In this document: positions 3,912-20,754 of the stretch, piece by piece | Numbering within the stretch: the first letter of the stretch is position 1 | Layout of the letters: each line of letters starts with the position of its first letter | NCBI GenBank assembly: GCA_004524535.1 | Contig: SDNY01000059.1 | Span: 1-21,333 of the forward strand | Length of the DNA stretch: 21,333 nt | DNA from: Promethearchaeota archaeon | GTDB lineage: Archaea; Asgardarchaeota; Lokiarchaeia; Sigyniarchaeales; SOKP01 | Direction of reading: 5' to 3' | Made by a program: the position numbers and the translations under genes | The notes under the pieces: generated by a model | The model's input: only the letters and a program-made list of their open reading frames with translations | Database searches by the model: none | What the model was told of the DNA's origin: nothing

Positions 3912-4125
3912 ATTTGTATTATTGATAAAAGAAAGTATACTTTAGTGCTTAAATAGAAGGCATCCAAATTAATTTATTTGTCTATTATGTGTAATATAGA
4001 ATTATATTAATTTAAACTTTGAATCTCTTACTAAATATGATCATCCTAATTATCATAAAGAATAATAATAGTAGAAATAATGTCGAAAAAGAAAAAAAAG
4101 AAAAAATAAATACAATATTAATGCT

Positions 4126-5574
4126 TTATGGGATGGAATCAATGAATTCATTATAGAGTACGTGCATAAAATTATTCTGCAAAAAAAGATCCTCAAGTTC
4201 CTTTAATTCATCTGATTTGATCTTATTAATCATTTCCTTAAATTGAATTTTAAATTTCTTCATCTCATCTTTGAAAACTTGGTAAGGACTATATGGTCGA
4301 AAGCCCCCATTAACTTCAGCAATCCAATTACGCTGTTTTAGTTTATTGAGTATACTGCGAACTTTTACTTCATTTATATTCATTACCCTACCCAAAATAG
4401 ATAAATCAGTATATCCTAAGGATATTAATACTGAATATGTTTTTAATTCGATTTCCGATATATTAAAAAATCGCATAGCTGATATAACTTTATTATCCAT
4501 TCTCATTACATTTGACTTTTTCTTTAATGACGCTTGTTCTATTTTTGTAATATCAATCTTATTGGAAAACTCAATTTTTTTTGAAGTAACAACGTCATCA
4601 AACAACTTTTTACCAGCATCACTACGGATAATTACACTATTCCACTTTTCTGAAGGAGCACCAACACTTCCAACTGAAATATCAGCAAATTCCGCCGTAT
4701 AATCCTTGCAATATTGACAGCTAGGCCACTGATACGATTTTACGTCTTTTAAAGGAATTTCTCTTATTTTCCCATTTCTTAATAAAACGATAAGTTTTCC
4801 CTGAATAATGTCAAATTTTTGTATCTCACCTAATTTCAAACCTAGATTATTCTTGAGATATTTCTTAATTAAATCATAGCTATAATTGGATGTACAGAAA
4901 AGACCTAGAATCATTTTAAATTTTCCTAATTTGTTTGAAAGTGGGGGATCTATTTGGAGTTTTCTTACTGCTTGAATTTGACAAGGCATTCCAACAAATG
5001 CAAGCCTCTCAAGTTTATATTTATGAATCGCATCACCATAAGGAAGTAATGTAGGTGCTATTGTATACTTTGAACCCGATGAAGCTATTATTTGTTCTGC
5101 CGTTCTCGCAACGACCGGGATGGGACGCCAATCTTCATCTTTATCAATTAATAAGACACCATCAACATATCCTGTATTTAAAGCATGTATAAGTAATGTA
5201 GTAATGATACCCCCATTTTGCGCCTTTTTAAGAATCAATTCATCGGAGCTTCTTGCTACAATAGCTCTTTGATAACAGCCTAAGATAAAATCTTTCTTTT
5301 GGTTACTAAATACTTTTTTTTCAAATAATTCTTCGGGAAAGAATGTTCTTGCGCAATATTTTGAACATAAGGAGCAATCCGTATCCCTTTCTAAAAGAGC
5401 AGGCTTATTTTTTAAGATACCAATTCGAGGACATAGTGCGATGCATGTTCCGCAAAAAACACAATTATCATTATTTATCACCAAATCGCATAGTTCTTGA
5501 AATCCAAAACCACCCTCATAATCTTCTAAATAATTAATTATTTTATTTTTTATAGTCATTTTTTCATACCTCAT
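4126..5574 (-). CDS. Ferredoxin + FrhB/FdhB-family (F420-binding) protein with C-terminal TrmB-like winged HTH
   Basis: CVFCGTCIALCP and CSLCSKYC; FrhB motifs AQNGGIITTLL, SGSKYT, VGMPCQ, LGLFC, CQYCKDYTAEFADISVGSVG; C-terminal FNISEIELKTYSVL...VRSILNKLKQRNWI resembles a TrmB HTH. Alternative start at ATG 5559. Confidence 0.85.
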   Translation of the reverse strand: MRYEKMTIKNKIINYLEDYEGGFGFQELCDLVINNDNCVFCGTCIALCPRIGILKNKPALLERDTDCSLCSKYCARTFFPEELFEKKVFSNQKKDFILGCYQRAIVARSSDELILKKAQNGGIITTLLIHALNTGYVDGVLLIDKDEDWRPIPVVARTAEQIIASSGSKYTIAPTLLPYGDAIHKYKLERLAFVGMPCQIQAVRKLQIDPPLSNKLGKFKMILGLFCTSNYSYDLIKKYLKNNLGLKLGEIQKFDIIQGKLIVLLRNGKIREIPLKDVKSYQWPSCQYCKDYTAEFADISVGSVGAPSEKWNSVIIRSDAGKKLFDDVVTSKKIEFSNKIDITKIEQASLKKKSNVMRMDNKVISAMRFFNISEIELKTYSVLISLGYTDLSILGRVMNINEVKVRSILNKLKQRNWIAEVNGGFRPYSPYQVFKDEMKKFKIQFKEMINKIKSDELKELEDLFLQNNFMHVLYNEFIDSIP

Positions 5575-5794
5575 TCACATTTTTAGCTTATTAATAGATT
5601 TAATTTAGTTTTACAAAATTATATGTCATATTACATACAAGGCTTGATCAATTACGGGGATCATATGATCGACCACAAGATATAAATGATCGGTTTCCTA
5701 TATATATAGTGACCATTTCAATATATAAATTTTTGATTTTGAGAAAAATAAAAAAAACTCAAATAATTAAAAAAAAAAGGGTGTAAGAAAAAAA
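5575..5794. promoter_or_regulatory. Divergent promoter region between two FrhB-HTH genes
   Basis: Palindromic TATA-like ctatatatatag (5698-5709); TGATC at 5645, 5666 and 5687; degenerate operator TTTACAA-N6-ATGTCAT at 5610-5629. Confidence 0.6.
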
Positions 5795-7243
5795 ATGATT
5801 GAATTAAGTGATTTTCATGATTTTAGAGGTATAATTCCAAAAAAAATAGATGTATCAATTCAACAAGCTCTAAATGATTTTCAATTTAGATCTCTCACTA
5901 AGGCAAAAGAAACTATCTTAAAAAATGGAAAATATGATGAGAATTCACTTAAATTTATCATAGATTCTATACTTAAGGAAGCTGTAATTCGAAAATATAT
6001 TTTGCAAGAATTAAAAGGGAAAAAACCGATTACATTAAAAAAAGCCACAGAAATTTTAGGAATTCCCTCTAATAGAGTTATTTATGAAATCTTAAATCTA
6101 AAGGATAAGGGTTTTATCGAAGAAGTAGATGAAAAAAGGGTTCAAGGAGGAACTGCTAAGCTATACAAAGTTATAGATGATACAGAAAAAATCTGGGAAA
6201 ATTATTTTAAACCTGTTGAAATATTTGCTAACCAAGGTTCTTGTAACAGATGTGGATTATGTTCCTCAATTTGTCCTGTAGATGCAATAAAATTTACAGA
6301 GGATTATTTATATATAGATGAGAGCAAATGCATTACATGCGGCCTCTGTTATAGTTTTTGTCCAAATTCTTTTAGATTGGATCCATTGTATAATAGTTCC
6401 AAAAAATCTGATCGTTATTTAAAACACTCAAAGAATTTCGGGTATTATTATAAAATATCTTCAGGTAAAACTCAAATAAGTGAATTAATGGATAAAGGAC
6501 AAGATGGAGGCGTTGTTACTTCATTACTTTATTATTTACTAGATAAAAAGTTAGTAGATGCAGTAGTTACTGTAAAACATTCAAGAAATTATTGGAAACC
6601 CAAGATATCTATTGTAAAAAATAAAAATTATTTAACTAATGCTTCAGGCACTATATATGCTCATGTACCTATTTTATCCATTCTAAATAAAGTGAAACAA
6701 TTTAATAAAGTAGCAATTGTTGCTCTCCCTTGCCAGATTAGAGCTATAACAAGAGGAATAGAATCGCCGATAAAACTACCGATTTTTAGTAATATAAAGT
6801 ATAAAATTGGGTTGTTCTGTATGAAATCGTTTACTTATGAGAGGATCCTAACTCTTATACAAGAAAAATTTAATATCACTTTAGATGAAATAACAAAAAT
6901 GGATATAAAAAAAGGCAGATTTATCCTCCATCTTATAAATGGAAACACTATTTCTACATCTTTAAAAAATTGCAGCGAATACACTTCAAATTATTGTCAA
7001 CAATGTTATGATGCAACATCAGAATTAGCAGATATTTCAGTAGGGGCGATTGGGTCGAAAGTAGGCTGGTCCACAGTGATAATGAGAACCAAGAAGGGAC
7101 AAGATCTTTTTATTGGCGCTGTTAAAGATAGATTAATCAAGACAAATAACCTTATGGACATAACTAATTGTCAATCTTTAGTAGATAAAATCGCAATGAA
7201 AAAAAAAGAAAATTATATACAAATCGAATTGGGGATAAAATAG
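5795..7243 (+). CDS. N-terminal helical/winged-HTH + 2x[4Fe-4S] ferredoxin + FrhB/FdhB-family protein
   Basis: KYILQELKGKKPITLKKATEILGIPSNRVIYEILNLKDKGFI (wHTH); CNRCGLCSSICP, CITCGLCYSFCP; GQDGGVVTSLL, LPCQ, IGLFC, ELADISVGAIGS..GWSTVIMR. Confidence 0.85.
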   Translation: MIELSDFHDFRGIIPKKIDVSIQQALNDFQFRSLTKAKETILKNGKYDENSLKFIIDSILKEAVIRKYILQELKGKKPITLKKATEILGIPSNRVIYEILNLKDKGFIEEVDEKRVQGGTAKLYKVIDDTEKIWENYFKPVEIFANQGSCNRCGLCSSICPVDAIKFTEDYLYIDESKCITCGLCYSFCPNSFRLDPLYNSSKKSDRYLKHSKNFGYYYKISSGKTQISELMDKGQDGGVVTSLLYYLLDKKLVDAVVTVKHSRNYWKPKISIVKNKNYLTNASGTIYAHVPILSILNKVKQFNKVAIVALPCQIRAITRGIESPIKLPIFSNIKYKIGLFCMKSFTYERILTLIQEKFNITLDEITKMDIKKGRFILHLINGNTISTSLKNCSEYTSNYCQQCYDATSELADISVGAIGSKVGWSTVIMRTKKGQDLFIGAVKDRLIKTNNLMDITNCQSLVDKIAMKKKENYIQIELGIK

Positions 7244-7248
7244 TAAAG

Positions 7249-7503
7249 GTGGATAAACTGGTGAAATATAAAAGGAAAAATATAAATCTTAAATACCAAA
7301 ACAAGGATAATTTAAATAAAAATAAGCAAAATATTCCCATTTCTGAACCCTATCCACCTACTAATGTATATAAAAGATTAAACGACATAAAGAATAAGTT
7401 AATGAACTCAGAACATGGACCAGTATATTATCCTAATTTTTTTATTAGAATTAATAATTTGGATGCAAAAATTAAACATAAAAGGAAAATTGAAGGCGAT
7501 TAA
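7249..7503 (+). CDS. Small basic hypothetical protein
   Basis: 84-aa K/N-rich ORF with GTG start 5 nt after the upstream stop; no recognisable domain. Confidence 0.35.
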   Translation: MDKLVKYKRKNINLKYQNKDNLNKNKQNIPISEPYPPTNVYKRLNDIKNKLMNSEHGPVYYPNFFIRINNLDAKIKHKRKIEGD

Positions 7504-7649
7504 GAAAATATAGTGTAATGAAAAATTTTAATAGAACATAAAAAAAGATTAGAGAATATTGATTTTAACAAAAATCGAAGGTTAAATATAAAGAAAAACT
7601 AGATAATCTAAATCAATGTAAGTATCTTTTCTCAATAACTAAAATCTTA

Positions 7650-7665
7650 TTTTTTTTTTTTTTTT
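7650..7665 (+). terminator. T16 tract, probable archaeal oligo-T terminator
   Basis: 16 consecutive T downstream of the 5795-7503 unit. Confidence 0.45.
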
Positions 7666-7711
7666 CTCGAATTTGCAGAATAATTTCTCAAATAATTCGT
7701 AAAAAAATTTT

Positions 7712-7804
7712 TTGACAAGAAAACTAATCTTATTTTTTATTTTGACATTAATGAATTTTTTTGTCTTTTGATTTGCAAATTTTTTTGTCAAATCTTTTTT
7801 ATAA
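7712..7804 (+). promoter_or_regulatory. Operator-like sites and TATA box upstream of the LELKP/mtd/nfn genes
   Basis: TTGACAA (7712), TTGACAT (7742) and TTTGCAA-N6-TTGTCAA (7772-7791) at 30-bp spacing, followed by TTTTATAA at 7797-7804. Confidence 0.55.
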
Positions 7805-7876
7805 CTATTTGGAGATTTATCAAATGTAGAAATAAATGATAAATTAGTTAGAAATAAAAACCAAGGTTAGATTTAT

Positions 7877-8509
7877 TTGGAGATTCTTGAATTAAAACCT
7901 CTAAGAAATAAAAAAGTAAAATTATATTTAATAAGAAGTGAGGATAAGGATTTTACTAATGAAGATTATAGAAATCTCCGGGAAATATTAGAAAATGAAT
8001 TGTTTAGGTTTGCTGTTATTGATTTAAACAGAAAGAACTTAAAAGAAATTTATGAGGAACCACTTTTTAGATTTTTGGAAAAATTTAAAATACCTTATTA
8101 TAGTGTTGATATCCCTGAAAACGTTAAAGACTATTTATATGTTGAAATTCTTGAAAAAGAGGTTCAAATTAATGATTTAGAAAAAGAATATTCTCTCTTA
8201 TGTGTTGATCCAGAAAATCAAAATTCGTTTAAAGCTCAGAATTTAAAATCCTGGATTGAATTATTGAAAAAAGAAGTAGAAAATAAGAAAAAATATTTAA
8301 AATTAACCGTTAAACCTCAGTGGATTGTTAAACAAGTTCTGGATATTGCTAATAGGATTAATAATAACGAATTTTCAATTATGCATTTCACTTATGGAGA
8401 GCTTTATTCAGAATTAAAGAAATTATTTAAGGAGTATAATATCAAGGTCATTAAAATTGACATTGAAAAAAAAAACATTAAAAATATATTAATAGAAAAT
8501 AGGAGGTAA
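7877..8509 (+). CDS. Uncharacterised 'LELKP' family protein (degenerate TraB/GumN-like alpha/beta domain with coiled-coil insert)
   Basis: TTG start; MEILELKPLRNKK and VDIPENVKDYLY motifs shared with the proteins at 8516, 20755 and 21047. Confidence 0.75.
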   Translation: MEILELKPLRNKKVKLYLIRSEDKDFTNEDYRNLREILENELFRFAVIDLNRKNLKEIYEEPLFRFLEKFKIPYYSVDIPENVKDYLYVEILEKEVQINDLEKEYSLLCVDPENQNSFKAQNLKSWIELLKKEVENKKKYLKLTVKPQWIVKQVLDIANRINNNEFSIMHFTYGELYSELKKLFKEYNIKVIKIDIEKKNIKNILIENRR

Positions 8510-8515
8510 AATAAA

Positions 8516-10180
8516 ATGCAAGTACTAGAATTAAAACCTTTAAAAAATAAAAAACTCAAACTGATAATTGTTGAGAGCGAATTTCCCATTGATTGGTCAT
8601 TAGAAGCATCAGAGAATAATGAAATTCTTGGAAATTTATTTTTCATATCAAAAGAATATCTGAATTTCCTTGAAAATCTTATAAAGAAATATAAGCCTGA
8701 TTTTGCCATAGAAGACAAGGGACTTCGAATAGGAGAAGAGAAAATGAGTGATGATGATATATTTTTAAGATTATTTAGAAGTTCTGGAATTCCATATGAG
8801 TTAGTCGATATTCCAGATTATGCATTAAATTATATCACATCACCCATATACAATAAGAAAGCATTATTAAAAAAATTTTCAGAAGAAATTGAAGAATACA
8901 AAAAAAGAGGTCAAATTCATTATAATGATACTCATTTTCAGCAATTAGCTCAATGGCATCTATATTTAATGGATGATGTGAAAGAACAAGAGGATGAAAT
9001 TAGATATAAAATTCGAGAATCATGGATGATGATGGGGATATTAGAATTAGCCAAGAAACAAAATAAAAAGGAATTGACCGCCTTATTTATTTGTGACAAA
9101 AATCATTTTGATGGGATCATCTTTTTGGCTAAAGAATTAGAAATAGAATATGAGTTAATTAATATTAAAAAGGTTGCTAAAGGATTAGACAAAGCAAGCT
9201 CAGTTAAGGATATATTAGAATCCTCAGTCTTAGAAATTATGCCAATAAAAGTTAAAAAGAAGGAGAAAAAAGAGAAATTATTATATTTTTTTGATACAGA
9301 TGATTATTGTTCTCCATTTGATACTAATATGGGATATGATGCTGGATTTGATGCCGTTGTACCTTATTGCAGAATGACAGCAGATATGGTACCAAAATTA
9401 GTTCAAGATGCGATGTTTTCTAGGAAGGTAGGAGCACCTACAGTGTATTTCGTTGGAGGATCAAACGTAGAAGAAAGTGAAAAGATTGCGGAAGCAGTAT
9501 TAAAATCACTCGTTCCACCATTTGAATCTCCTGTAATTATTGATCCACGCGGGGCTCATACAACAGCATCTGCAATAGTAGCCAAGACAATCGAAGTTGC
9601 AAGGATACATGGTATTCAAGATTTATCTGGTAAAAAAATTGTTTGTTTAGGTGGTACTGGACCGGTTGGACAAATAGCTGCATTAATAGCTGCTAAGCTC
9701 CATGCAAATGTGGTGATAACTTCAAGGAGGGAAGATTTCGTTAAAAAATTAGCAGAAAGCTTAACAGAAAAAGCGGGTTCCGCAGCATCAAAAATAGAAG
9801 GAGTTTTGGCAGATTCTGAGGATGATTTTTATAAAATTGTGAAGGATGCTGATGTAATTTGGTCTGTGGGCAAAGCTGGGATACAAATGTTATCAAAAGA
9901 AGTAATGAATAAGCTTCGACCAAATAAGATTGCTGTAGATATTAATTTGGTCCCCCCTTATGGTATTGAAGGATTAGAACCAAACTTTAATGATAAAGAA
10001 TTCTATCCTGGAATATTTGGTTTAGGGGCTCTTGACATTGGTCGTTTGAAATATAAAATTGAGAGTATTATATTCAATGAGGCAGCTAATACAAAAGGGA
10101 AAAAATTATTCGATTATAACATTGCATTTGAAATTGCTTTTAAGATCTTAATAGGGGAAGAAATCAAAATTTCGATATAA
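8516..10180 (+). CDS. mtdB: Fusion of an N-terminal LELKP/TraB-like domain and an NAD(P)-dependent methylene-H4MPT/H4F dehydrogenase (MtdB/MtdA family)
   Basis: RBS aggaggt; C-terminal ~300 aa contain SPFDTNMGYDAG, VQDAMFSR, DPRGAHTTA, GGTGPVG and DINLVPPYGIEG, characteristic of MtdB-type enzymes. Confidence 0.85.
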   Translation: MQVLELKPLKNKKLKLIIVESEFPIDWSLEASENNEILGNLFFISKEYLNFLENLIKKYKPDFAIEDKGLRIGEEKMSDDDIFLRLFRSSGIPYELVDIPDYALNYITSPIYNKKALLKKFSEEIEEYKKRGQIHYNDTHFQQLAQWHLYLMDDVKEQEDEIRYKIRESWMMMGILELAKKQNKKELTALFICDKNHFDGIIFLAKELEIEYELINIKKVAKGLDKASSVKDILESSVLEIMPIKVKKKEKKEKLLYFFDTDDYCSPFDTNMGYDAGFDAVVPYCRMTADMVPKLVQDAMFSRKVGAPTVYFVGGSNVEESEKIAEAVLKSLVPPFESPVIIDPRGAHTTASAIVAKTIEVARIHGIQDLSGKKIVCLGGTGPVGQIAALIAAKLHANVVITSRREDFVKKLAESLTEKAGSAASKIEGVLADSEDDFYKIVKDADVIWSVGKAGIQMLSKEVMNKLRPNKIAVDINLVPPYGIEGLEPNFNDKEFYPGIFGLGALDIGRLKYKIESIIFNEAANTKGKKLFDYNIAFEIAFKILIGEEIKISI

Positions 10181-10190
10181 AAAATTCACA

Positions 10191-10201
10191 TTTTTTTTTT
10201 T
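10191..10201 (+). terminator. T11 tract between mtd and nfnA, possible terminator or attenuator
   Basis: Oligo-T 10 nt after the mtd stop codon. Confidence 0.35.
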
Positions 10202-10246
10202 GTTTTTAGTATTGTGAAGTACAACTAAATTAAGGTGAGATTAAAC

Positions 10247-11131
10247 ATGCCATACAAAATATTAGAAAAAAGAAAATTAGGACAAAGTGGAATATTGTAT
10301 GAAATGGTGTTAGACACACCATTAATTGCAGAAAAGGTTAATGCGGGAAATTTTATTATCATAAGAATTAATGATACAGGAGAACGAATTCCATTGACTG
10401 TTGCAGATTATGACAGAGAAAAAGGAACCATAACTATCGTTTTTCAAGTAGTAGGAAAAAGTACAAAATTACTTTCAAGTATTGATGTTAATGGGGTCAT
10501 TCTTGATATTGTTGGCCCTTTAGGAAAAAAGATACATATCAAAAAATATGAACATCCTATTGTCATTATAGGAGGTGGCGTTGGCATAGCACCTTGTTAT
10601 CCTCAAGCTAAAGAATTAAAGCAAGCTGGGAATAAAATTTTTATGATAATGGGTGCAAAAAATAAAGATTTTTTATTCTGGAAAGAAAAGACAAGAAGAA
10701 TAGTAGATGAATTAATAATTTGTACTGATGATGGTTCAGAAGGAATTAAGGGTATTGTAACAGATCCTTTAAAACAATTATTAAAAAGAGAGAAAATAAG
10801 TTTGGTTATTGCGATTGGACCTCTTATCATGATGAAGTATGTTTGTCTTATGACGGACGGTTCAAATGAATTACCCAAAGTAGTTACAATGGTATCGCTT
10901 AATACAATTATGGTTGATGGCACAGGAATGTGTGGAGGATGTCGATTTATGACTAAAGATGGAAAAGCCTATTTTGCATGCGTTGATGGACCAGATTTTG
11001 ACGGACATATAATTAATTTCGACAACCTTTTAAATCGAGCAAAAAGGTTTCATAAGAAAGAGGCTGAATCCTTGAATGTTTATAATAAGAAATGTAGGGC
11101 ACTTGAAAAATTTTATGAGGTGACAATCTAA
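10247..11131 (+). CDS. nfnA: NfnA/SudB (ferredoxin-NADP reductase small subunit, FAD + [2Fe-2S])
   Basis: GERIPLTVAD, GPLG, GGGVGIAP, TDDGS, DGTGMCGGCR...CVDGPDFD. ATG at 10247 follows RBS aggtga (the ORF track starts at GTG 10235). Confidence 0.92.
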   Translation: MPYKILEKRKLGQSGILYEMVLDTPLIAEKVNAGNFIIIRINDTGERIPLTVADYDREKGTITIVFQVVGKSTKLLSSIDVNGVILDIVGPLGKKIHIKKYEHPIVIIGGGVGIAPCYPQAKELKQAGNKIFMIMGAKNKDFLFWKEKTRRIVDELIICTDDGSEGIKGIVTDPLKQLLKREKISLVIAIGPLIMMKYVCLMTDGSNELPKVVTMVSLNTIMVDGTGMCGGCRFMTKDGKAYFACVDGPDFDGHIINFDNLLNRAKRFHKKEAESLNVYNKKCRALEKFYEVTI

Positions 11132-11132
11132 G

Positions 11133-13901
11133 ATGGAATTTCAAACACCTTTAGTTAAAGTTTTAATTGAAAATGAAGATAAAATCTTAAGCTCTAAGAA
11201 ATTTTCAAAGCAAGAATTTGAAATTTTTATTAAAGATTTAACTGTAGCAGAGAATCAAAGATACTTAATTTTAGAGAAAATAAGAGAAAAGGGAGATTAT
11301 GATTTAGATGTTTTACAAAAAACTCTAAATGTTTCCAAAAGAGAACTTATCTTAAATATTGAATTTCTAAAAGAACTTGGACTTCTTAAATTTATTAATA
11401 TGGAATCAGCCTTTTATGAAAATCTAGAAAATAAAAATGACATAAAAGGTTTATTTCCAAATATCTCTGAAATACAAGAGAAAAAAATATGTTCGGGATG
11501 TGGTCTATGTGTCTCAGTATGTCCTGTCAATGCAATCAAATTTAAAGATGATATTTTAACCATAGATCTCGATTTATGTATAAATTGTGGATTATGTTAT
11601 GCTTGTTGTCATAGAACTTTTTTTCCTAAAGAATTAGAAATAAATGAAGCTTGTAATGAAATAGATGCAAAATTTCAAGAAGAATTCAATGGGTTTAAAG
11701 AAATTCATACCGCACAGACGAGGGATTCTGAGATTAAAAGAGTTGCTCAAGACGGAGGGATAGTCACATCATTATTAAAAGCAGCTTTTAATGAGAAAGT
11801 GATAAAAAATGCTTTAGTTGTTGGAGAATTTAAAGATGGATTTTCACTAAAACCCTTGCCTCTATTGGTTAAAAATGAGGTTGAATTATTAAGGAGTAGC
11901 GGAACAAAATATAGCAATGCTCATATTTTACAGTTATTACATGAGGCTAGAGGAGTTGAGGATTTAGCAATTGTAGGGACTCCTTGTACTATGCAAGCGC
12001 TCAAAAAAATCTCTTTTTACCCATTAAATAAACCTTATTATAATAACATTAAGTTAAAAATAGGTTTATTTTGTATGGAATCATTTGATTATCAGAAAAT
12101 AATTGAGATTTTGAAAGAAGAATTCAATAAAATTCCAGAAGAAATAAAAAAAATGGATATCAATAACGGACATTTTTTTGTTTATGACAAAAATTACAAA
12201 TCTTACAGTATTCCCATTAAAAATATTAAAAAGTACGGTAGATATGGATGCTTTTTATGTAGCGATTTAACTACCGAACATTGTGATATTTCAGTTGGAT
12301 CAATTGGTTCTAATCCTGGTTGGTCAACTATGATTATAAGAACTGAAATAGGGCAAAATTTATTTCAGAAATCAACCAGTAGAAATTTGATTTTTACAAA
12401 AAAAATCAAAGAAGATGAGAAGAATTTCAGCCTATTAAGTAGAATTGCTTTATCCAAAATTAAACGATACAAAGAAATTCCACGGCAAAAAATGATTGAA
12501 CAAGATCCTAATATAAGAATCCAGAATTTTGAAGAAGTCCCTCAAGGTTTAACGGAAAAGATGGTCATTCTTGAAACTCAAAGGTGTTTACAATGTGGTA
12601 ATCCATTATGCATACAAGGTTGTCCCGTAAATGTTGATATTCCTCAGTTCATTAAATTATTAAGATCGAAAAAATATAAAGAAGCTTCAATGTTTATTAA
12701 ACAATATAATTTATTGCCAGCGATATGTGGAAGAGTGTGCCCTCAAGAAACTCAATGTGAAGGAGTATGTTTATTGGGAAATGTGGATAAACCTGTTGCG
12801 ATTGGTTACTTAGAAAGATTTATAGCAGATTGGGAACGAAAAAGTGAGATGAAAGAATGCCCTGAATGTCAAGCCCCTAAAAACATAAAAGTAGCAATTA
12901 TCGGCTCAGGACCAGCTGGTTTAACGTGTGCTGGAGAATTAACGAGGATCGGATATGATGTAACGGTTTTTGAAGCATTGCATACAGGTGGTGGTGTGTT
13001 AGTTTATGGTATTCCTGAATTTCGTTTACCAAAGATCATAGTTGAAGAGGAAATTGAATCTCTGAAAGACTTAGGAGTCAAAGTTAAATATAATATGATA
13101 ATTGGCAAAATTTTATCTATTGAAGATCTTAAAGAGAAGGGATATAAAGCTATTTTTATTGGCGTTGGAGCAGGATTACCAGTTTTTCTAAATATACCAG
13201 GATTAAGATTAAATGGGGTTACAAGTGCTAATGAATTTCTTACAAGAGCTAATTTAATGAAGGCATATAAATTTCCAGAATATGATACACCAATTAGAGT
13301 TGGAAAAATAGTAACTGTTATAGGAGGAGGAAATGTTGCCATGGATTCAGCTCGAGTTGCTCTAAGATTAGGAGCCAAGAAAGTAATAATTGTATATAGA
13401 AGATCTGAACAAGAAATGCCAGCAAGGAGGGAGGAATATCATCATGGAAAAGAAGAGGGTCTTGAATTCCAATTTTTGACAAATCCAATAGAATTCCTTG
13501 GTGATCAAGATGAGAATGTTAAACAAATGGTGTGCCAAAAAATGGAATTAGGAGACCCTGATGATTCAGGTAGAAGGAGCCCTATTCCAATAAAAGGTTC
13601 AGAATTTATAATTGATACCGATATGATTATTATCGCTATTGGAACTAGAGCTAATCCTATTTGTCCTAAATCTATTCCAAATTTAAATCTTAACAAATGG
13701 GGTTATATTGAAACAAATGATAAATGTCAGACAAATTTAGAAGAAATATTTGCTGGTGGAGATATTGTTACTGGAAGTGCTACTGTAATTTCTGCTATGG
13801 GTGCCGGAAAACGGGCAGCTGAAGGGATTCATGAATATTTAACAAAAAAATATAAGATTTCCGTTGATCATTTAGAGAAAATAGTTGATTTAACGCATTA
13901 A
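11133..13901 (+). CDS. nfnB: Fusion: wHTH + ferredoxin + FrhB-family domain + NfnB/SudA (GltD-like) large subunit
   Basis: N-terminal half: CSGCGLCVSVCP, AQDGGIVTSLL, SGTKYS, VGTPC, IGLFC, DISVGSIGS. From ~12480: RCLQCGNPLCIQGCPV, CGRVCPQETQCE, IGSGPAG, GGGNVAMD, YRRS, AGGDIVTGSATV. Starts 1 nt after the nfnA stop. Confidence 0.9.
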   Translation: MEFQTPLVKVLIENEDKILSSKKFSKQEFEIFIKDLTVAENQRYLILEKIREKGDYDLDVLQKTLNVSKRELILNIEFLKELGLLKFINMESAFYENLENKNDIKGLFPNISEIQEKKICSGCGLCVSVCPVNAIKFKDDILTIDLDLCINCGLCYACCHRTFFPKELEINEACNEIDAKFQEEFNGFKEIHTAQTRDSEIKRVAQDGGIVTSLLKAAFNEKVIKNALVVGEFKDGFSLKPLPLLVKNEVELLRSSGTKYSNAHILQLLHEARGVEDLAIVGTPCTMQALKKISFYPLNKPYYNNIKLKIGLFCMESFDYQKIIEILKEEFNKIPEEIKKMDINNGHFFVYDKNYKSYSIPIKNIKKYGRYGCFLCSDLTTEHCDISVGSIGSNPGWSTMIIRTEIGQNLFQKSTSRNLIFTKKIKEDEKNFSLLSRIALSKIKRYKEIPRQKMIEQDPNIRIQNFEEVPQGLTEKMVILETQRCLQCGNPLCIQGCPVNVDIPQFIKLLRSKKYKEASMFIKQYNLLPAICGRVCPQETQCEGVCLLGNVDKPVAIGYLERFIADWERKSEMKECPECQAPKNIKVAIIGSGPAGLTCAGELTRIGYDVTVFEALHTGGGVLVYGIPEFRLPKIIVEEEIESLKDLGVKVKYNMIIGKILSIEDLKEKGYKAIFIGVGAGLPVFLNIPGLRLNGVTSANEFLTRANLMKAYKFPEYDTPIRVGKIVTVIGGGNVAMDSARVALRLGAKKVIIVYRRSEQEMPARREEYHHGKEEGLEFQFLTNPIEFLGDQDENVKQMVCQKMELGDPDDSGRRSPIPIKGSEFIIDTDMIIIAIGTRANPICPKSIPNLNLNKWGYIETNDKCQTNLEEIFAGGDIVTGSATVISAMGAGKRAAEGIHEYLTKKYKISVDHLEKIVDLTH

Positions 13902-14920
13902 ACTCGCTTATCTAATTCTATTTTTTTACAAATCAATATCTTATTATTTTCTATAATATTAAGTAAATAATCATTAATTCCTGGAATGATAGGTGAGATA
14001 AATAATATTTCCTCTTCAGGAAACCACAACTCAATTTTTTCATTAAAAACTTCTTTTTCAAAAAAATCCTTAACAAAGGTAATTTTTACTCTTAAATCTC
14101 TAATCGATTTGGAAAAGATATTTTTTAGAGTTATTTCCATTTCTTGATTGCCTTGGTTTAATTCAATATTTGATATTTCAAATGGCGCCTTTAATTGAAA
14201 TGTTTCATTATTACTTTTAGTGGAATCAAAAAATCTTATATTCAAAGAGTCTTGTTCTTTTTTATGATTGAAAATGTTAGATATCTTTATACCTTTTAAC
14301 ATTAAATATGAAAGAGCTTTTTGTAATTTAATTGATGTTGCATCATATTGTTCTATGATGGATTCAAAAAACTCTTTACATGCAGAATCTATCATGTTTA
14401 TCATCTTTTTTTTCATTAACTCTCCTTTATTGATGGTTTCAAGAATAGGGGGTGTTTTAATTATTTCAAACCTAAATAATTCAGACTCAATGATATTATA
14501 TAAAGTATTTTGGAAATTCTTTATAACTATATCTGAAATTTTATTAAGAAGTGCTCTACCAAAGATATCAATATCGGTCGGTATTCTTACAATTAATATT
14601 ATTGTTTCGGGAGTTTCTTCCATCAATCCGGCTCTTTTTTTTTTCCTTTTTGATTTCACAAGAAATTTTTGAGCAAAATACATATTTCCTTCATATTCTA
14701 AATCAACTCGATTAAAATCCTCATGATCCTTAATCTCTAAAAACCAGATTGGGTGGATCTTAATTAAACGTAATTTTTCACCATCATTTCTTATAGATTC
14801 ATCTGGATAAAATAAAAGAGGTACCGCTCCTTGCATCTCATCAAAATATAACATATAAATTTCATAAAATACTGAGAAATTCTTCTCTGTCTTCTTTTCT
14901 TCAACAAAAAATTCATTCAT
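13898..14920 (-). CDS. Hypothetical protein with N-terminal uDENN/longin-like (NPRL2-like) domain and C-terminal Ig-like beta domain
   Basis: IYMLYFDEMQGAVPLLFYP matches the hhh-FD-x3-G-x-hhh-YP start of uDENN/longin domains; the last ~95 aa show an alternating beta-strand pattern (MEITLKN...LRVKITF). Confidence 0.6.
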   Translation of the reverse strand: MNEFFVEEKKTEKNFSVFYEIYMLYFDEMQGAVPLLFYPDESIRNDGEKLRLIKIHPIWFLEIKDHEDFNRVDLEYEGNMYFAQKFLVKSKRKKKRAGLMEETPETIILIVRIPTDIDIFGRALLNKISDIVIKNFQNTLYNIIESELFRFEIIKTPPILETINKGELMKKKMINMIDSACKEFFESIIEQYDATSIKLQKALSYLMLKGIKISNIFNHKKEQDSLNIRFFDSTKSNNETFQLKAPFEISNIELNQGNQEMEITLKNIFSKSIRDLRVKITFVKDFFEKEVFNEKIELWFPEEEILFISPIIPGINDYLLNIIENNKILICKKIELDKRV

Positions 14921-14980
14921 TTTAATAAAACTTTTATTTTATTTGTAATTTGATTTTTAATATTGAATTTTAGGATGATT

Positions 14981-16291
14981 TCAATGAGTAGCACATGATA
15001 TACATGGGTCAAAAGCTCTAATTATTAACTGAATTTCTTTCTTTATCGTATCAATATCAGTTTTTTCATATAATTTTTGAGCATAGTTCGTTATCATATG
15101 GTTTATGAGAGGAATATTAATCTCTGTGGCAATAAATAGTTTAATTTGATCGATTGAATTTTCTTTATTGAGATGATAATGATGCAAAAGAATCCCTCTG
15201 GGGGCCTCAACTACCCCTATCCCATCCATATTTTTTATATTTGTTAACGATAAAAGGCTCTCATTTTTATTTACTAAAGGGTCATTCAGAAGTTCCAAGG
15301 CTTTAAATGTCTCAACATACATTTCTAATAAGCGAATAAAATTCGTAAATAATATATTTTTATACCAAGTTTTATCAAAAACGCTTAAAAAATTAGAAAC
15401 TTCTTCTATATCATAACTTTCTACAATATGATTGCGTGCTAAGGGACCTACTAAAATATTATTACCAATAGAAAAATCAATCCCATTTAAATCAATATCT
15501 TTATTAAAATAGTTAGTATAGTTTTTTTCTATAAAGTTTGTAATTTTTTTATTATCTTCCTTAAATCCAAGAATACCAGAATATCTATCAAAGATTCCAT
15601 GATTATGCATTCCTAAAAAGATAGGATTAGGAATCATAAACTCCTCAGGGGGTATTTTTTTAGAGAATAGTTCAATGAATCTTTCTATGACTACCTCCAA
15701 ATTCATTAATACTTTTTGAAAATATTTTCTTGCTAATGTTATATTTTTTTTTGATGGATTGTAAATAACTCCTCCTGGAATTACTGTTATTGGATGAACA
15801 GATCTACCCCCAAATATTTTATCAATTTCATTTCCTATTTTTATTAATTCAAAGAATATTGTTGTTAATTGGGGATAATTTTTTATAATAGCATATGGTG
15901 ATAGTATTTTTTGATGAATATTAAAAATCCTTAATAAATCTGGAAATGCTTGAAAAAAGAAATGGAGGCTATGAGATTTGATTAATTCGCCTGTCATTAA
16001 TAATTTCCGCACTAATATTGATTGTTCAGAAGGTTCAATTCCATAAATATTCTCAATTGTTTTGCAACTAGCGATTGATTGCGAAGCGTGACATAAACCA
16101 CATATTCGTGAAATAATTTTAGGAAGATCACATAATTTTTTATGTTTCAATATGTGTTCAAACCCTCGATAAGCTTCTATTTCAAATGTAGCTTGTGTTA
16201 TCTCTTCATTTTTATTATCAAGATATATTTTCACTTTACCATGACCTTCAACTCTCGTACAAACATCAACGATTTTTAACAAATTCCTCAC
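14981..16291 (-). CDS. mvhA: Group 3 (MvhA-like) [NiFe]-hydrogenase large subunit with atypical, sensor-like motifs
   Basis: TRVEGHG, L1 RICGLC, GGRSVHP, EAPRG, L2 DPCISCATH*. The GTG start overlaps the mvhG TGA stop (GTGA). Confidence 0.88.
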   Translation of the reverse strand: MRNLLKIVDVCTRVEGHGKVKIYLDNKNEEITQATFEIEAYRGFEHILKHKKLCDLPKIISRICGLCHASQSIASCKTIENIYGIEPSEQSILVRKLLMTGELIKSHSLHFFFQAFPDLLRIFNIHQKILSPYAIIKNYPQLTTIFFELIKIGNEIDKIFGGRSVHPITVIPGGVIYNPSKKNITLARKYFQKVLMNLEVVIERFIELFSKKIPPEEFMIPNPIFLGMHNHGIFDRYSGILGFKEDNKKITNFIEKNYTNYFNKDIDLNGIDFSIGNNILVGPLARNHIVESYDIEEVSNFLSVFDKTWYKNILFTNFIRLLEMYVETFKALELLNDPLVNKNESLLSLTNIKNMDGIGVVEAPRGILLHHYHLNKENSIDQIKLFIATEINIPLINHMITNYAQKLYEKTDIDTIKKEIQLIIRAFDPCISCATH

Positions 16292-17052
16292 CTTTTAAAC
16301 GTTGGTTTTGAAAATCGATAAAAAATACCATCATAATTTCTTATCTTTTTTGAAAGATGAATTAAACTGATAAAATTAATTGTATTGGAAAAAAAGCTTT
16401 TTGAAACAGGCCCCATACATCCTTCACAAGGAAGACCTTCTTTAATACATACATGTTCACATCCATCTCGAGTGATAGGTCCCAGACATAAAATTCCTCT
16501 TTTTAAAAAACACTCAGTATCTTCTTCGACAGGTATTATTTCCTCTGGATTGGGATTAATTTGAGTAATTTTTGTTTGAAAATTTTCCTCAGCCTCTCCT
16601 CTTAATGGACATGTTGCACATAAATTCTTTTTTGGAATATCAACATCAATTTCTCTATTCTCAATTAATTTTATTAGACAATTACCTAACAATTTTGAGG
16701 GCGGCGGGCATCCAGGAATGACACCATCTATTTCAATATATTTAGAAACGGGTTCTGCTATCCTTTTTTTCGAAAGACTTAAAATACCTCCGAAGCCCGC
16801 ACAAGTCCCTATGGAATAAACCTTTTTAGTTTGTTTCCTTATTTTTTTAAGTAAATTAACTTGTGAGTCTTCAGAAACACATCCTTCTATAAGTGCGATA
16901 TCACATTCTTCAATTTCTTCTACATCCATTATAAAAGGAAAGTAAATTATTTTTGTCCTTTCAAGGAACTGAGGGAATATATCTAAAGATAATAGGGTAG
17001 AAATACATCCACTACACCCTGTTAATGATGAAATTAATATTTTAGGCTTCAA
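16288..17052 (-). CDS. mvhG: Group 3 [NiFe]-hydrogenase small subunit (MvhG-like)
   Basis: GCSGC, EGCV, GTCAGFGG, PGCPP, CATCP, CFLKRGILCLGPITRDGC...CEGCMGP; TTG start with ggagga RBS overlapping the upstream stop; no Tat signal. Confidence 0.88.
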   Translation of the reverse strand: MKPKILISSLTGCSGCISTLLSLDIFPQFLERTKIIYFPFIMDVEEIEECDIALIEGCVSEDSQVNLLKKIRKQTKKVYSIGTCAGFGGILSLSKKRIAEPVSKYIEIDGVIPGCPPPSKLLGNCLIKLIENREIDVDIPKKNLCATCPLRGEAEENFQTKITQINPNPEEIIPVEEDTECFLKRGILCLGPITRDGCEHVCIKEGLPCEGCMGPVSKSFFSNTINFISLIHLSKKIRNYDGIFYRFSKPTFKR

Positions 17053-19591
17053 ATTTAATCTCCTCCGATAATTGATTATAAAAAGTTTTCACCATCTCAG
17101 CAAATTTTATACCTTCTACAGCATTCATATTTTCAATTATAATGCGTTTCTTATATTTGGGATTTAAAACATCTTTCAATAATTCAATTTTACGTTGAAT
17201 TTTTTCAATGCCGTCAATATATCTACATGAGTTTCTCCTACAACCAATTATCATAACTCCATCAAATCCATGTTCAAATGAATTAATTATGAAGCTTGTG
17301 TCAATGCGCCCTGTACAAGGAACTTGAACTATGAAGATGTTTGGATTATAGGAGATCTTTTTTAATCCTGCATCATCTGCAGCTGCGTAACCACACGAAC
17401 GACAGCAGAATGCTATAATTTTTGGCCGTTTTTTAAATTTTGAGAGTATTTCAATCGTTCTATTAATCTTTTCTGTGGTATCTATGTTCATTTCTATCGC
17501 ATTAGTCGGACACACACTTACACAGGTACCGCATCCCTTACATTTAAACATGTCGATGCTTAATTTATCTGATTCTATGGTTATAGCATTATATGGACAT
17601 GATTTCGAGCATAATCCACATATTCCACATAATTCCTCATTGATTTCAATTCCACTAAACTCTGATATTAAAGAATCCTTAGATAAAAGTGCTATTATTT
17701 TTAATGCAACATTATTAGCTGTAGAAATCGTAGAATTATAATCCAAAGGTCCGAAAATTGTCCCTACTCCATATATTCCAGAGGCTATTGTTTCTTCGCT
17801 CATAAAACCGTTATCATCAAGAGTGAAATCCATAGTTTTTCGCAAGATTTTCAAATCTTTATTCGGCACCATCATGACATTCAAGACTATTAAATCACTC
17901 GGATATTCTTTAGAGTTAGCAACAATTATATTTTTATTGTTTCTTTCAATAATTTTCAAGTCATTTACATAATGAAACTTTTTATCCATATGAGTTGATA
18001 ACGAATTATGATTTTCCTTAAGTTTGTTTAAATCATAAAAAACATTTACCTCACAATTAGGAATATGTTGTTTTATTGATTCTAGATATTTTAATGCTAA
18101 AATATCATTATACTCTAATCGATTATATATAGGACCTACGCATTGGATAATTGAAACAGATTCAGGAGGCACTTTACTTGAGATTTTCAAGATATCTCCA
18201 TTTGTAAAACCATCAGAAGAAAGCATTCTTTCGAATTCGGGAGATGTAATAATATCATTTTTTGGATTATAATGATATTCTTCTAAATCTGAATAAAGAT
18301 CAGACCCAATTGCGATTACTTTTGTACCAACTTTGATTCTAATTTTTTCTAATTTCTGATCTAAGTCAATCGCTTTATTAATACAGGCGCGTTCACAAAT
18401 TCTACAATTGATACAATTTTTTATGTCCTCCTCATCAATTATAGGAGCAAATGGATAAGAATGAATAAATGGAATATAAATTATTTTTCTATTTGTTAGT
18501 TCAAATTCATATTGATTAGGTTTTTCTATACTACATACTTCAATGCATTGTTTACAACCTGTACACTTTTTTTCATCAACAAAACGAGGTTTTTTAATTA
18601 AATCAATCGTAAAATTCCCAACCTCTCCAGATACGTTCTCAATTTCCGTATTAGTTAAAATTTTTATATTTTTTTCGTTAACCAATTCAGCAATTAATTC
18701 AGAAATAAAACAAATTGAACAATCTCCTATATTTGAAATTCGATCCCATCTAGCAACCTTCCCCCCTAATGTCGGTGATTTTTCAATAAGATATACTTTA
18801 ATTCCAGCTTTAGCCAAATTTAGTGCAAGAGTCATACCTCCTATACCCCCTCCTATAATTGCACAACTTTTTTCAATCTCAACTCTCTTTGCTTTCACTT
18901 TTTTTTGCATTATTACTCTTTCTATAGCCGCTTCTATTAACAACTTAGCTTTTTCTAATATGAGCAGGGGATCGAATTCTCTACCATTTGAATGATGTAC
19001 CCATGCACATTGTTCTCGTATATTCGCAATCTCAATATTGGCATGCTCTATAACCTTTTCAAATATCCTCTCAAATAGATGTTGATGTGTTTTCGGTGAA
19101 CATGCCGCTATAACTATTTTATTAATGAAATTTTCTTTAACCCAATTTGTAATTTTGCTAAAATTCTTTTGTTGGCATAAATTCTCAAAAATTTTTACGG
19201 AAACAACATTCCGAAGCTTATTGATATAATTTTCTAACGCATTTACATTGATAATATTTGAAATTTCAGTATTACAATTACATATGATTACCCCTACTCG
19301 ACTTATAGTACTTCCTTTTGCACCTAAATATTCATCAACGTTTTCTCCTGATAAAATTCTTTTATTAATATTAAGAATTTGTAATATTTTTTTACCATCT
19401 TCCGTAATAAAATATGATTTTTTATCTTTATTTATAAGAGAACCGAGTTTTTTTAAATGAAAATTTAATTGACCTGTTGTCTCTAAATTTAATCGCTCCA
19501 TTAAATCCGTATAAGGGATATATCCTTCTTTTTCTAAAATAAGTAAAATTTTTCGCCTAAATGGATGAGATAATATAGAATAAATATCCAA
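17042..19591 (-). CDS. hdrA: Fusion: ArsR-like winged HTH + divergent HdrA + MvhD
   Basis: LSHPFRRKILLIL...TGQLNFHLKKL...YFITEDGKK (wHTH); AACSPKTH, NIREQCAWVH, GGGIGG, EFERML and two ferredoxin pairs (HdrA); IIAFCCRSCGYAAAD, VPCTGRID, GCRRNSCRY (MvhD). Confidence 0.9.
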   Translation of the reverse strand: MDIYSILSHPFRRKILLILEKEGYIPYTDLMERLNLETTGQLNFHLKKLGSLINKDKKSYFITEDGKKILQILNINKRILSGENVDEYLGAKGSTISRVGVIICNCNTEISNIINVNALENYINKLRNVVSVKIFENLCQQKNFSKITNWVKENFINKIVIAACSPKTHQHLFERIFEKVIEHANIEIANIREQCAWVHHSNGREFDPLLILEKAKLLIEAAIERVIMQKKVKAKRVEIEKSCAIIGGGIGGMTLALNLAKAGIKVYLIEKSPTLGGKVARWDRISNIGDCSICFISELIAELVNEKNIKILTNTEIENVSGEVGNFTIDLIKKPRFVDEKKCTGCKQCIEVCSIEKPNQYEFELTNRKIIYIPFIHSYPFAPIIDEEDIKNCINCRICERACINKAIDLDQKLEKIRIKVGTKVIAIGSDLYSDLEEYHYNPKNDIITSPEFERMLSSDGFTNGDILKISSKVPPESVSIIQCVGPIYNRLEYNDILALKYLESIKQHIPNCEVNVFYDLNKLKENHNSLSTHMDKKFHYVNDLKIIERNNKNIIVANSKEYPSDLIVLNVMMVPNKDLKILRKTMDFTLDDNGFMSEETIASGIYGVGTIFGPLDYNSTISTANNVALKIIALLSKDSLISEFSGIEINEELCGICGLCSKSCPYNAITIESDKLSIDMFKCKGCGTCVSVCPTNAIEMNIDTTEKINRTIEILSKFKKRPKIIAFCCRSCGYAAADDAGLKKISYNPNIFIVQVPCTGRIDTSFIINSFEHGFDGVMIIGCRRNSCRYIDGIEKIQRKIELLKDVLNPKYKKRIIIENMNAVEGIKFAEMVKTFYNQLSEEIKFEA

Positions 19592-19690
19592 TTTTTACCT
19601 ATCCTCTCCTTTTTCAATTTTTTTTTTTTATTAAAAAATAGTATGGATATTCTAAAATTAAATGACAATTTTAACAAATTATTTATCTAC

Positions 19691-19720
19691 ATGACAAAAA
19701 TAGTTGTCAAAATATATAAA
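19691..19720 (-). promoter_or_regulatory. Minus-strand TATA box with an operator immediately downstream (hdrA-mvh operon)
   Basis: ATGACAA-aaatag-TTGTCAA at 19691-19710; 19711-19720 reads TTTATATATT on the minus strand. Confidence 0.6.
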
Positions 19721-20463: not shown

Positions 20464-20635
20464 TATATTTTTTTTGAAATTTAATTGATTTAACCTTATT
20501 TTTTTCTTTTTTTTTAAAAATAAGATTTTGATAAAAATATTTTTCAAACTTTTGTAATCAAAAATTTACTATTATGTAAAATCACTTAATTTGCTAATAA
20601 GATTCTTGATTTGTAATTTAATTAAGATTGTAAAT

Positions 20636-20655: not shown

Positions 20656-20754
20656 TAACCTAGAAATTTCTCTTATCAAATTCTTTATATTTTGGGGATT
20701 TCACTTTATTCTTGGAATAGTAATATGATAAAAAAAGAAAGAGGTGGTTTAAAA

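Follow-up and report, generated by a model that had tools for sequence, protein, structure and literature searches.

Winged-helix domains recruited into electron-transfer enzymes of an Asgard archaeon: a putative adaptor and a candidate autoregulator

What does a winged-helix (WH) domain do when it is carried by a redox enzyme? The question is raised by a 21,333-nucleotide (nt) stretch of a Promethearchaeota archaeon of the Lokiarchaeia (assembly GCA_004524535.1, contig SDNY01000059.1, positions 1 to 21,333), hereafter the window, which appears to hold a set of Asgard-specific hydrogenase-, HdrA-, FrhB- and Nfn-type electron-transfer enzymes with recruited WH domains. A first-pass annotation had singled out four redox enzymes, here termed P1 to P4, each bearing a helix-turn-helix (HTH) domain of this kind, and had proposed that all four are “trigger enzymes” reporting F420, NAD(P) and H2 status to DNA. 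The four domains are borne out, by Pfam for P1 and P4, by AlphaFold and Foldseek for P2 and by hhalign for P3; the uniform interpretation is not, in that the N-terminal module of P2 and P3 looks instead like an integral protein module. We tentatively prefer, with a confidence slightly short of even, the view that WH domains were recruited three times into these Asgard enzymes for two different jobs: that of an adaptor in P2 and P3, and that of a regulator in P4.

The four proteins differ in how the WH is combined with the catalytic parts. P1 (4126-5574, minus strand; 482 amino acids, aa) displays a [4Fe-4S] motif, the FrhB_N and FrhB_C domains, a C-terminal TrmB-type WH (PF01978; aa 368-430, nt 4285-4473) and a long helix after it (aa 431-482, nt 4129-4284). 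P2 (5795-7243, plus strand; 482 aa) starts with an N-terminal module recognized by AlphaFold and Foldseek (aa 1-127, nt 5795-6175), comprising a helical cap and a WH (aa 49-126, nt 5939-6172), and continues with two [4Fe-4S] motifs and FrhB. P3 (11133-13901, plus strand; 922 aa) has a cap/WH module (aa 8-88, nt 11154-11396), two [4Fe-4S] motifs, FrhB and an NfnB/GltD-type flavoprotein. Finally, P4 (17042-19591, minus strand; 849 aa, TTG start) fuses an ArsR/DUF7347 WH (aa 1-75, nt 19367-19591) to HdrA and MvhD. In P1, P2 and P3 both FrhB_FdhB_N and FrhB_FdhB_C score far above their Pfam cut-offs and the P2 model superposes on solved FrhB chains; the scores against TIGR03289 and NF006807 stay below the cut-offs of those models.

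One could suspect that such fusions are artefacts of mis-called starts, frameshifts or a chimeric assembly of regulator and enzyme genes. A check of the open reading frames (ORFs) in the window returned all four as uninterrupted frames at the positions first assigned to them, and the domain junctions and start positions are repeated in many independent contigs of metagenome-assembled genomes (MAGs), which refutes this explanation for practical purposes. Indeed, each of the four architectures recurs in Asgard MAGs and none is peculiar to the window. For these comparisons we used 629 matches of P2 at E<=1e-10 (119 relatives listed), 265 of P1 at E<=1e-5 (120 listed) and 846 relatives of the P4 WH at E<=1e-3. 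Gene contexts come from a scan of one genome per species that yielded 485 confirmed P2 relatives, from which 80 loci were kept; the titles of 70 name Promethearchaeota or Promethearchaeia, Hodarchaeota, Hermodarchaeota or Thorarchaeota, and the remaining ten read “uncultured archaeon”.

The N-terminal extension precedes two [4Fe-4S] motifs and FrhB in P2 (~145 residues), and a ferredoxin-FrhB part like that of P2, followed by the NfnB/GltD-type flavoprotein, in P3 (~115 residues). In Pfam, the HTH matches of P2 are all below threshold (TrmB 0.0042, HTH_20 0.0096), and P3 alone gives only CggR_N (0.0082) and HTH_11 (0.16). The AlphaFold model of P2 aa 1-145, made from 70 aligned sequences, has a mean pLDDT (predicted local distance difference test) of 82.7, with values above 90 for aa 21-110, and features three short cap helices, then helices at 49-73, 81-87 and 92-104 and wing strands at 108-112 and 122-126. 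Its listed Foldseek matches in the PDB are mostly WH proteins (ArsR-like 3cuo, PadR 5h20, TFE-alpha, MarR, ScpB and Zalpha), at E values of 5e-3 to 4e-2, none reaching 1e-3, and with a probability of 1.0 for most. Look-alikes of P2 aa 1-140 in a protein atlas are ArsR-type clusters, at a score of 0.84 that lies below the level counting as more than a lead. The model thus predicts a WH fold for the N-terminal modules of P2 and, by homology, P3. A homologue search with P2 aa 1-145 alone returned just P2, a result that reflects a word-index limit and says nothing on uniqueness.

That the two modules are homologous, as the first-pass annotation had it from their aligned N-termini, is recovered by hhalign, in which P3 aa 8-88 matches the P2-family profile (P2 aa 31-111) with a probability of 94.3% and an E value of 1e-7. 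BLASTP of the N-terminal pieces alone is not significant (E 6.7); at full length it aligns P2 and P3 collinearly from P2 aa 32 and P3 aa 9, across 448 aa with 33% identity (E 4e-74), and the two proteins are thus collinear paralogues from P2 aa 32 on. Against the same P2 module, the P1 and P4 domains obtain probabilities of 0.3% and 0.2%, and are hence unrelated to it; they belong to the TrmB and ArsR/DUF7347 types, respectively. With one homologous module in P2 and P3 and two domains unrelated to it in P1 and P4, the earlier estimate of about three independent fusions holds.

Several lines of evidence favour a protein-protein adaptor role for the P2/P3 module, as an integral part of the FrhB-type input subunit of HdrA/MvhD complexes. 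Within the P2 family, conservation of the cap (column identity 0.70) and of the WH (0.72) matches that of the FrhB core (0.74), and the would-be recognition helix, ENVIRDIIYLKEQGYIEE, is near-invariant, its exposed positions included. The region corresponding to aa 1-145 has a mean net charge of -6.2 and is positive in only 14% of the members; the P3 module is mildly acidic (17 basic against 21 acidic residues, -4). The full-length AlphaFold model of P2 has a mean pLDDT of 86.3 and a predicted template modelling score (pTM) of 0.89. Since a randomly placed module making up 27% of the chain presumably could not give such a pTM, we infer from the score, not from coordinates, that it is confidently placed against the FrhB body. 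The architecture itself is conserved, most of the 119 listed relatives being aligned over 94-100% of P2.

A further pointer comes from relatives in which the module is sandwiched between other electron-transfer domains. The first ferredoxin Cys motif lies at residues 140-199 in 100 of 123 proteins and at residues 260-309 in 17; in these 17 of the 119 listed P2 relatives it sits ~130 residues further in, the offset expected of an N-terminal MvhD fusion. MvhD-fused forms were called by length together with Pfam FlpD, in a scan that covered the 31 rows of one family alignment (A1), and FlpD was confirmed in all eight long members (609-635 aa) of that alignment, whose domain order is MvhD, linker, cap, WH, ferredoxin, FrhB. 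BLASTP with the MvhD of P4 as query does not detect the fused MvhD, which is too divergent, and P2 and P3 of the window have no MvhD of their own. These fusions bear out the caveat, already attached to the trigger-enzyme proposal, that the shared domain of P2 and P3 might be a structural element linked to MvhD.

There is also a precedent. According to a preprint (bioRxiv 10.64898/2026.04.10.717634), BamF of the class II benzoyl-CoA reductase is an MvhD-like adaptor, more than 100 residues longer than usual, whose winged HTH forms an interface with BamI. BamF parallels the P2 family in having a winged HTH on an MvhD-type [2Fe-2S] adaptor within an HdrA-like bifurcating complex, by analogy with the P2 relatives that unite MvhD, cap, WH, ferredoxin and FrhB on one chain; it differs in being bacterial, in lacking the FrhB part and in having extra Rossmann-fold domains, while the window's P2 and P3 lack the MvhD. 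The BamF interface, as described there, matches both the earlier remark that similar tails occur on some MvhD proteins and the adaptor role proposed for P2 and P3. FrhB as a plug-in electron module of a larger complex is familiar: the best structural matches of the P2 model are the ferredoxin-FrhB chains of the F420-reducing carbon monoxide dehydrogenase and of Fmd from Ca. Ethanoperedens (8riu_B and 8rja_E; E 5e-24 and 2e-22, 345-352 aligned columns), to which the FrhB of Frh can be added. However, these lack the cap and WH, only the ferredoxin-FrhB region of P2 being aligned, and no solved FrhB-type chain carries the module.

The neighbourhoods of the P2 family point the same way. A full-length P2 relative is present in 78 of the 80 loci, which fall into two groups, A (16 loci) and B (62 loci); the counts of neighbouring genes are restricted to loci flanked by 3 kb or more on either side (nine in group A, 46 in group B). 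Group A comprises the closest relatives of P2, with a 621-638-aa form in 10 of its 16 loci. A P1-type gene occurs within 3 kb in eight of nine, in divergent, tandem or convergent orientation; an 849-aa wHTH-HdrA-MvhD gene like P4 is found in five of nine, followed by MvhG and then, where the contig continues, by MvhA; and a pair formed by an orf7877-type gene (after orf7877 of the window, 7877-8509, plus strand) and an MtdB-like gene is seen in five of nine. In group B, made up mostly of Lokiarchaeia-type loci, an adjacent 370-aa FrhB-like gene without the module is found in 38 of 46, HdrA-like genes within 8 kb in 45 of 46, including tandem double-HdrA proteins of ~1,013-1,043 aa, and a free-standing MvhD in 39 of 46. 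Because HdrA and MvhD neighbours recur in this manner, the P2 family can be regarded as a regular member of HdrA/MvhD gene clusters.

Two features of the clusters deserve mention in their own right. First, in most group B loci an HdrA-like gene is split into 100-aa and 442-aa ORFs about 15 nt apart (e.g., L019, 7768-8070 and 8086-9414). HdrA is a reported Asgard selenoprotein (PMC11227280), and hence the split pair probably reflects an in-frame selenocysteine codon. Second, the ~1,013-1,043-aa HdrA-like proteins (L019, 12782-15823; L020, 13931-17017; L003, 12395-15526; and others) contain two FAD-binding modules and lie beside a free MvhD; they resemble the long HdrA homologues described for anaerobic methanotrophic (ANME) archaea (PMC9012536).

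Thus, conservation like that of the core, an acidic average charge, confident placement, MvhD fusion in relatives, occurrence in HdrA/MvhD clusters and the BamF precedent together argue for a cap and WH that would act as a fixed docking or adaptor element, most likely not as a DNA reader, in an FrhB-type electron-input subunit working with MvhD/HdrA-type flavin-based bifurcating complexes. Some observations weigh against this: the window's own P2 module is slightly basic (26 K+R against 23 D+E, +3); a near-invariant recognition helix is equally expected of a regulator with a conserved operator; and Pfam HTH_DeoR is matched by seven of the 31 family members in the alignment, with a best E value of 2.7e-6. 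We consider DNA binding by the P2/P3 module improbable all the same. This bears directly on the original proposal of four DNA-binding trigger enzymes that signal the status of F420, NAD(P) and H2. The presence of a WH fold in all four, and two distinct conserved promoter elements adjoining the P1-, P2- and P4-type genes (see below), speak for that proposal; yet the P2/P3 module is on average acidic, conserved like the core, confidently packed and, in relatives, placed between MvhD and ferredoxin, and the FrhB fold serves other acceptors too, as illustrated by the 7-hydroxymethyl chlorophyll a reductase entry 5dqr among the structural matches of P2. With these features in the balance, a set of four DNA-binding sensors has very little probability.

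P4 presents a different picture. Its aa 2-72 match DUF7347 with 45 bits (cut-off 27.6) and HTH_24 with an E value of 1.5e-5, and the best PDB sequence match of the WH is the ArsR-type 1y0u (E 0.009). The remainder is accounted for by enzyme parts: aa 98-714 align with the whole of solved HdrA (8rvu_a, residues 13-650; E 1e-113) and aa 722-841 with MvhD (5odc_D, E 6e-26; FlpD 119 bits, cut-off 22.3). As aa 98-714 cover the entire solved HdrA, the first 97 residues, which are absent from all solved HdrA chains, constitute an add-on. The best NCBIfam model is HdrA2, at aa 98-843 with 587 bits against a cut-off of 1100; with the NCBIfam equivalog cut-offs missed, P4 is HdrA-like and of no named HdrA subtype. 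In its full HdrA and MvhD, followed by genes for an MvhG-like small subunit (16288-17052, minus strand) and an MvhA-like [NiFe] large subunit (14981-16291, minus strand), both assigned by Pfam and NCBIfam, it recalls the HdrA2-type fusions and the Mvh/Fdh-Hdr complexes (5odc, 7bkb, 8rvu); it departs from them in the 97-residue N-terminal extension with its WH, in the missed HdrA2 cut-off and in a window without hdrBC genes.

The P4 architecture is stable. Orthologues of 849 aa that align over residues 1-849 are encoded in five loci (L002, L003, L006, L008 and L011), which together with the window make up the six P4-bearing sources considered below, and the DUF7347-HdrA-MvhD arrangement is represented by three full (P0124, P0149 and P0190) and two partial cluster representatives. 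The order P4-MvhG-MvhA of the window is kept in L002, L003 and L008, and up to MvhG at the contig end in L006 and L011; a further locus, L005, has a P4 fragment followed by MvhG and MvhA. As a separate observation, three of the five loci with P4 have an additional gene at the head of the wHTH-HdrA-MvhD-MvhG(-MvhA) operon, which encodes a ferredoxin-FrhB protein of 384-387 aa devoid of a WH (L006, 2973-4136; L008, 1333-2490; L011, 3056-4210); none is present upstream of P4 in the window.

Small proteins that carry a single WH or two make up most of the 846 relatives of the P4 WH, and 15 of 15 of the small ones checked carry a DUF7347-type domain. The P4 WH shares 35-48% identity with such free-standing DUF7347/ArsR-type proteins, and in all 11 family members compared the motif hP.R..IL...TG.LN.HL is kept and the net charge is +2 to +5. 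By these marks, the P4 WH retains the hallmarks of a transcription factor and has diverged little from free-standing regulators. Solved HdrA dimerises via its N-terminal domain (PMC9012536); with the HdrA dimer joined through the N-terminal domains, we infer a geometry in which the two WHs of a P4 dimer could sit near the two-fold axis.

A candidate for the DNA target of such a pair is a palindrome, TGACAAAAATAGTTGTCA (19692-19709), found 3 nt from the P4 operon's TATA box (19713-19720), the TTG start following after ~100 nt. Its consensus, TGAYAA-N6-TTRTCA, directly follows TTTATATA in the P4-operon upstream regions of the window and of all five loci. The window has four copies at no more than one mismatch against 0.76 expected, a number that none of 100 shuffles reached: besides the promoter copy, these are an exact copy at 20637-20654 and a one-mismatch copy at 20529-20546, both upstream of orf20692 (20692-20988) and orf21035 (21035-21331), and a one-mismatch copy at 4038-4055, 127 nt upstream of a histidine-kinase-like gene (2853-3911, minus strand). 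Among the 80 loci, the exact palindrome is confined to the five with the 849-aa P4 orthologue, and all 14 exact copies in 1.31 Mb belong to the window and these five. Nine of the 14 precede the P4 operon, or the FrhB-like gene heading it, and three are found ~104-125 nt upstream of orf7877/MtdB-type operons; one-mismatch copies also precede orf7877-type genes in L007 and L010. In L005 a one-mismatch copy (6298-6315) lies 235 nt upstream of a homologous histidine-kinase-like gene, which hints that the kinase might be part of the same regulon.

Archaeal repressors usually act between the TATA box and the transcription start. The palindrome would lie in precisely this interval of the P4 operon, between the TATA box and the expected start of transcription, and this makes autoregulation by P4 a reasonable proposal. 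In trigger enzymes such as PutA and BirA, a cofactor-dependent enzyme and a DNA-binding domain share one polypeptide, and the catalytic or redox state can set the transcription of related genes. The model that we propose for P4, and possibly for P1, is analogous to these, with the difference that PutA uses a ribbon-helix-helix domain and that neither it nor BirA has HdrA, FrhB or hydrogenase-complex parts; in domain content P1 and P4 agree with it, and conserved promoter elements exist. In this model, the paired WHs of a P4 dimer would bind TGAYAA-N6-TTRTCA at their own operon and upstream of the MtdB-type operon, and P4 would tie the transcription of H2-, ferredoxin- and one-carbon (C1)/NADPH-linked genes to its own assembly or redox state. 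Judged from sequence, we place P4 as an autoregulatory trigger enzyme close to an even bet, inclining slightly to the negative. A fuller version, in which the protein is a DNA-binding bifurcating flavoenzyme whose HdrA dimer occupies the operators of its own and of the methylene-tetrahydromethanopterin (H4MPT) dehydrogenase/Nfn operons and is released by redox or assembly state, with P1 as a possible second sensor at a promoter block shared by P1 and P2, is rather doubtful.

The evidence on the palindrome is not one-sided. The motif was discovered in P4 promoters, such that its co-occurrence with P4 is partly by construction, and the loci are mutually related. The promoter of the window's own orf7877-MtdB-NfnA-P3 operon has two-mismatch copies only. 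Further, the binder could be P1, a P1-type gene being present in all six P4-bearing sources, or the Lrp/AsnC-type regulator recognized by Pfam (20038-20463, plus strand) and encoded divergently from P4 in the window. This leads to a broader rival, namely that all four WHs are structural, serving dimerisation or docking in bifurcating complexes, and that the palindrome and the P1/P2 promoter block are the targets of ordinary free-standing regulators, be it Lrp/AsnC or one encoded elsewhere. It can call upon the protein-protein interface formed by the winged HTH of BamF (bioRxiv 10.64898/2026.04.10.717634), on the inclusion of the non-DNA-binding ScpB and of RNA polymerase III subunits among the Foldseek WH matches, on the conservation, pTM and gene-context evidence from P2/P3, on the variable recognition-helix positions of P1 and on the single intergenic region used by the Lrp/AsnC gene and P4 in the window. 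It is at odds with the P4 WH, basic, with its helix motif kept and undiverged from DUF7347/ArsR-type proteins, and with the TrmB match of P1, which is above the Pfam cut-off and extends along the helix that follows. Nor is there a free-standing regulator common to all six P4-bearing sources within the captured flanks (~10 kb each side), an Lrp-type gene being within the captured range in three of them (the window, L003 and L006). On this evidence an exclusively structural role is less likely, and we retain the split reading, with adaptors in P2/P3 and a regulator in P4.

Next to the palindrome, the ~100 nt that separate it from the start codon of the P4 operon (19592-19691 in the window) are well conserved between the window and the five loci (...ATAA..TTTGTTAA.AT.GTCATT.AATTT...) and hold another TTGTCA half-site. 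Going by the sequence, a further operator may lie here, or an RNA leader element.

P1 is the more ambiguous of the two candidate regulators. Pfam identifies FrhB_FdhB_N, FrhB_FdhB_C and, at aa 368-430, TrmB (PF01978), the latter by a narrow margin in the whole protein (25.7 bits, cut-off 25.6) and with 28.6 bits and an E value of 1.3e-6 for the excised domain; a precomputed PF01978 annotation is attached to 95 (counted by eye) of the 120 relatives listed, and all 120 are full length (460-497 aa, coverage 92-100%). The match to the PDB entry of TrmB, 3qph, is weak (E 0.022) and extends into the long helix after the WH. Like the TrmB regulators, P1 thus has a domain above the Pfam cut-off and an alignment reaching the post-WH helix; unlike them, it is an FrhB enzyme with the domain at its C-terminus, not a sugar sensor with the domain at its N-terminus, and no TrmB effector (sugar-binding) domain is recognized in it by Pfam. 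By its domain content, P1 is a carrier of the TrmB-type DNA-binding module only, not of the full TrmB architecture.

The region of aa 340-482 averages a net charge of +4.5 in the P1 family and is less conserved than the enzyme core (column identity 0.60 against 0.73). Transcription-factor hallmarks are kept, less clearly than in P4. A point against a DNA-reading role, and a difference from the TrmB regulators, is that the exposed positions of the putative recognition helix (helix 3) vary among orthologues. DNA binding by P1 is a possibility on the weaker side of even: the TrmB-type WH and its helix could form either a second regulator of the P4 kind or a dimerisation element. Complex prediction of P1 with P2 gave an ipSAE (interaction prediction score from aligned errors) of 0.00 in both runs, which counts neither way.

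If P1 does bind DNA, it could do so at a promoter block common to P1-type and P2-type genes. This block, AA.AT.TAAATGATC....T.C.TATAT (5677-5703), is invariant in six of six divergent P1/P2 intergenic regions. Its core, TAAATGATC, precedes each of the 11 full-length P1-type genes examined by 70-110 nt, in constant orientation to them, and nine P2-type genes by 87-150 nt; it is retained even where the P1 and P2 genes are not divergent. The block, which we treat as a lead only, may consist largely of back-to-back TATA and BRE (transcription factor B recognition element) elements. Beside it, four GATC sites crowd into 46 bp (5646-5691), more densely than anywhere else in the window, and the perfect palindrome GATCATATGATC (5659-5670) is part of this cluster; this too is a lead only. 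GATC-type words were rejected as an operator, in that AATGATC, TGATCA and TTGATCA are not over-represented window-wide, though they are locally clustered upstream of P1/P2 and P4. The words TGATC/GATCA reach 5.98 per kb in 24 P1-, P2- and P4-type promoter regions against 2.17 in 70 others, a difference on which the proposal of four trigger enzymes could draw, with the motif chosen post hoc and the loci related.

The remaining genes fill out the metabolic setting. Upstream of P3 on the same strand, orf7877 is followed by an MtdB-like gene (8516-10180; Pfam Mpt_N) and an NfnA-like gene (10235-11131; Pfam DHODB_Fe-S_bind). The product of the latter scores 349.7 bits against NF004862 (cut-off 220) and the flavoprotein half of P3 579.9 bits against TIGR01316 (cut-off 471.75), and by these curated cut-offs the NfnA-like protein and the C-terminal half of P3 count as an NfnAB/GltD-type pair. 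P3-type fusions recur as well, apparently both with and without the extension, though we take this as a lead only: in the protein atlas, FrhB+Pyr_redox_2 fusions make up two Promethearchaeota clusters of 67 and 69 members, represented by proteins of 911 and 824 aa. The N-terminal 266 residues of the MtdB-like protein (554 aa) match no family, and in relatives the N-terminus of the orf7877-type protein is weakly similar to that of the MtdB-like protein. A second such gene, orf21035, is a paralogue of orf7877; it runs off the window and has 53% identity to the copy in L003. The frame of the MvhA-like subunit ends in a stop codon (14981-14983) directly after DPCISCATH, so that there is no C-terminal extension for a maturation protease; selenocysteine read-through at this end was rejected, since the frame stops right there. 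The window as a whole has a G+C content of ~29%, 27 ORFs of at least 80 aa and no matches in Rfam and tRNA scans. One region (1001-3000, with ORFs at 1456-2655 on the minus and 887-1459 on the plus strand) stands out with 41-44% G+C and may be foreign DNA; a 399-aa ORF in it belongs to no Pfam or NCBIfam family, and the region is without an Rfam match.

Eukaryotes have their closest known relatives in the Asgard archaea, whose H2 and electron-bifurcation metabolism figures centrally in models of eukaryogenesis; to our knowledge, almost nothing is known of how this metabolism is regulated and assembled. The locus displays three lineage-wide recruitments of WH domains into this machinery, and full-text literature searches returned no paper on Asgard FrhB or HdrA proteins fused to a WH. 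The current annotation, “coenzyme F420 hydrogenase beta subunit”, hides the module borne by FrhB, which, if it is an adaptor, would be a new way to plug FrhB-type input modules into HdrA/MvhD complexes. If the WH of P4 indeed binds the palindrome, P4 would be the first bifurcating enzyme to double as a transcription factor, with a small and directly testable regulon, and its presence on these operators would constitute a direct wire from H2 and ferredoxin status to transcription in Asgard archaea.

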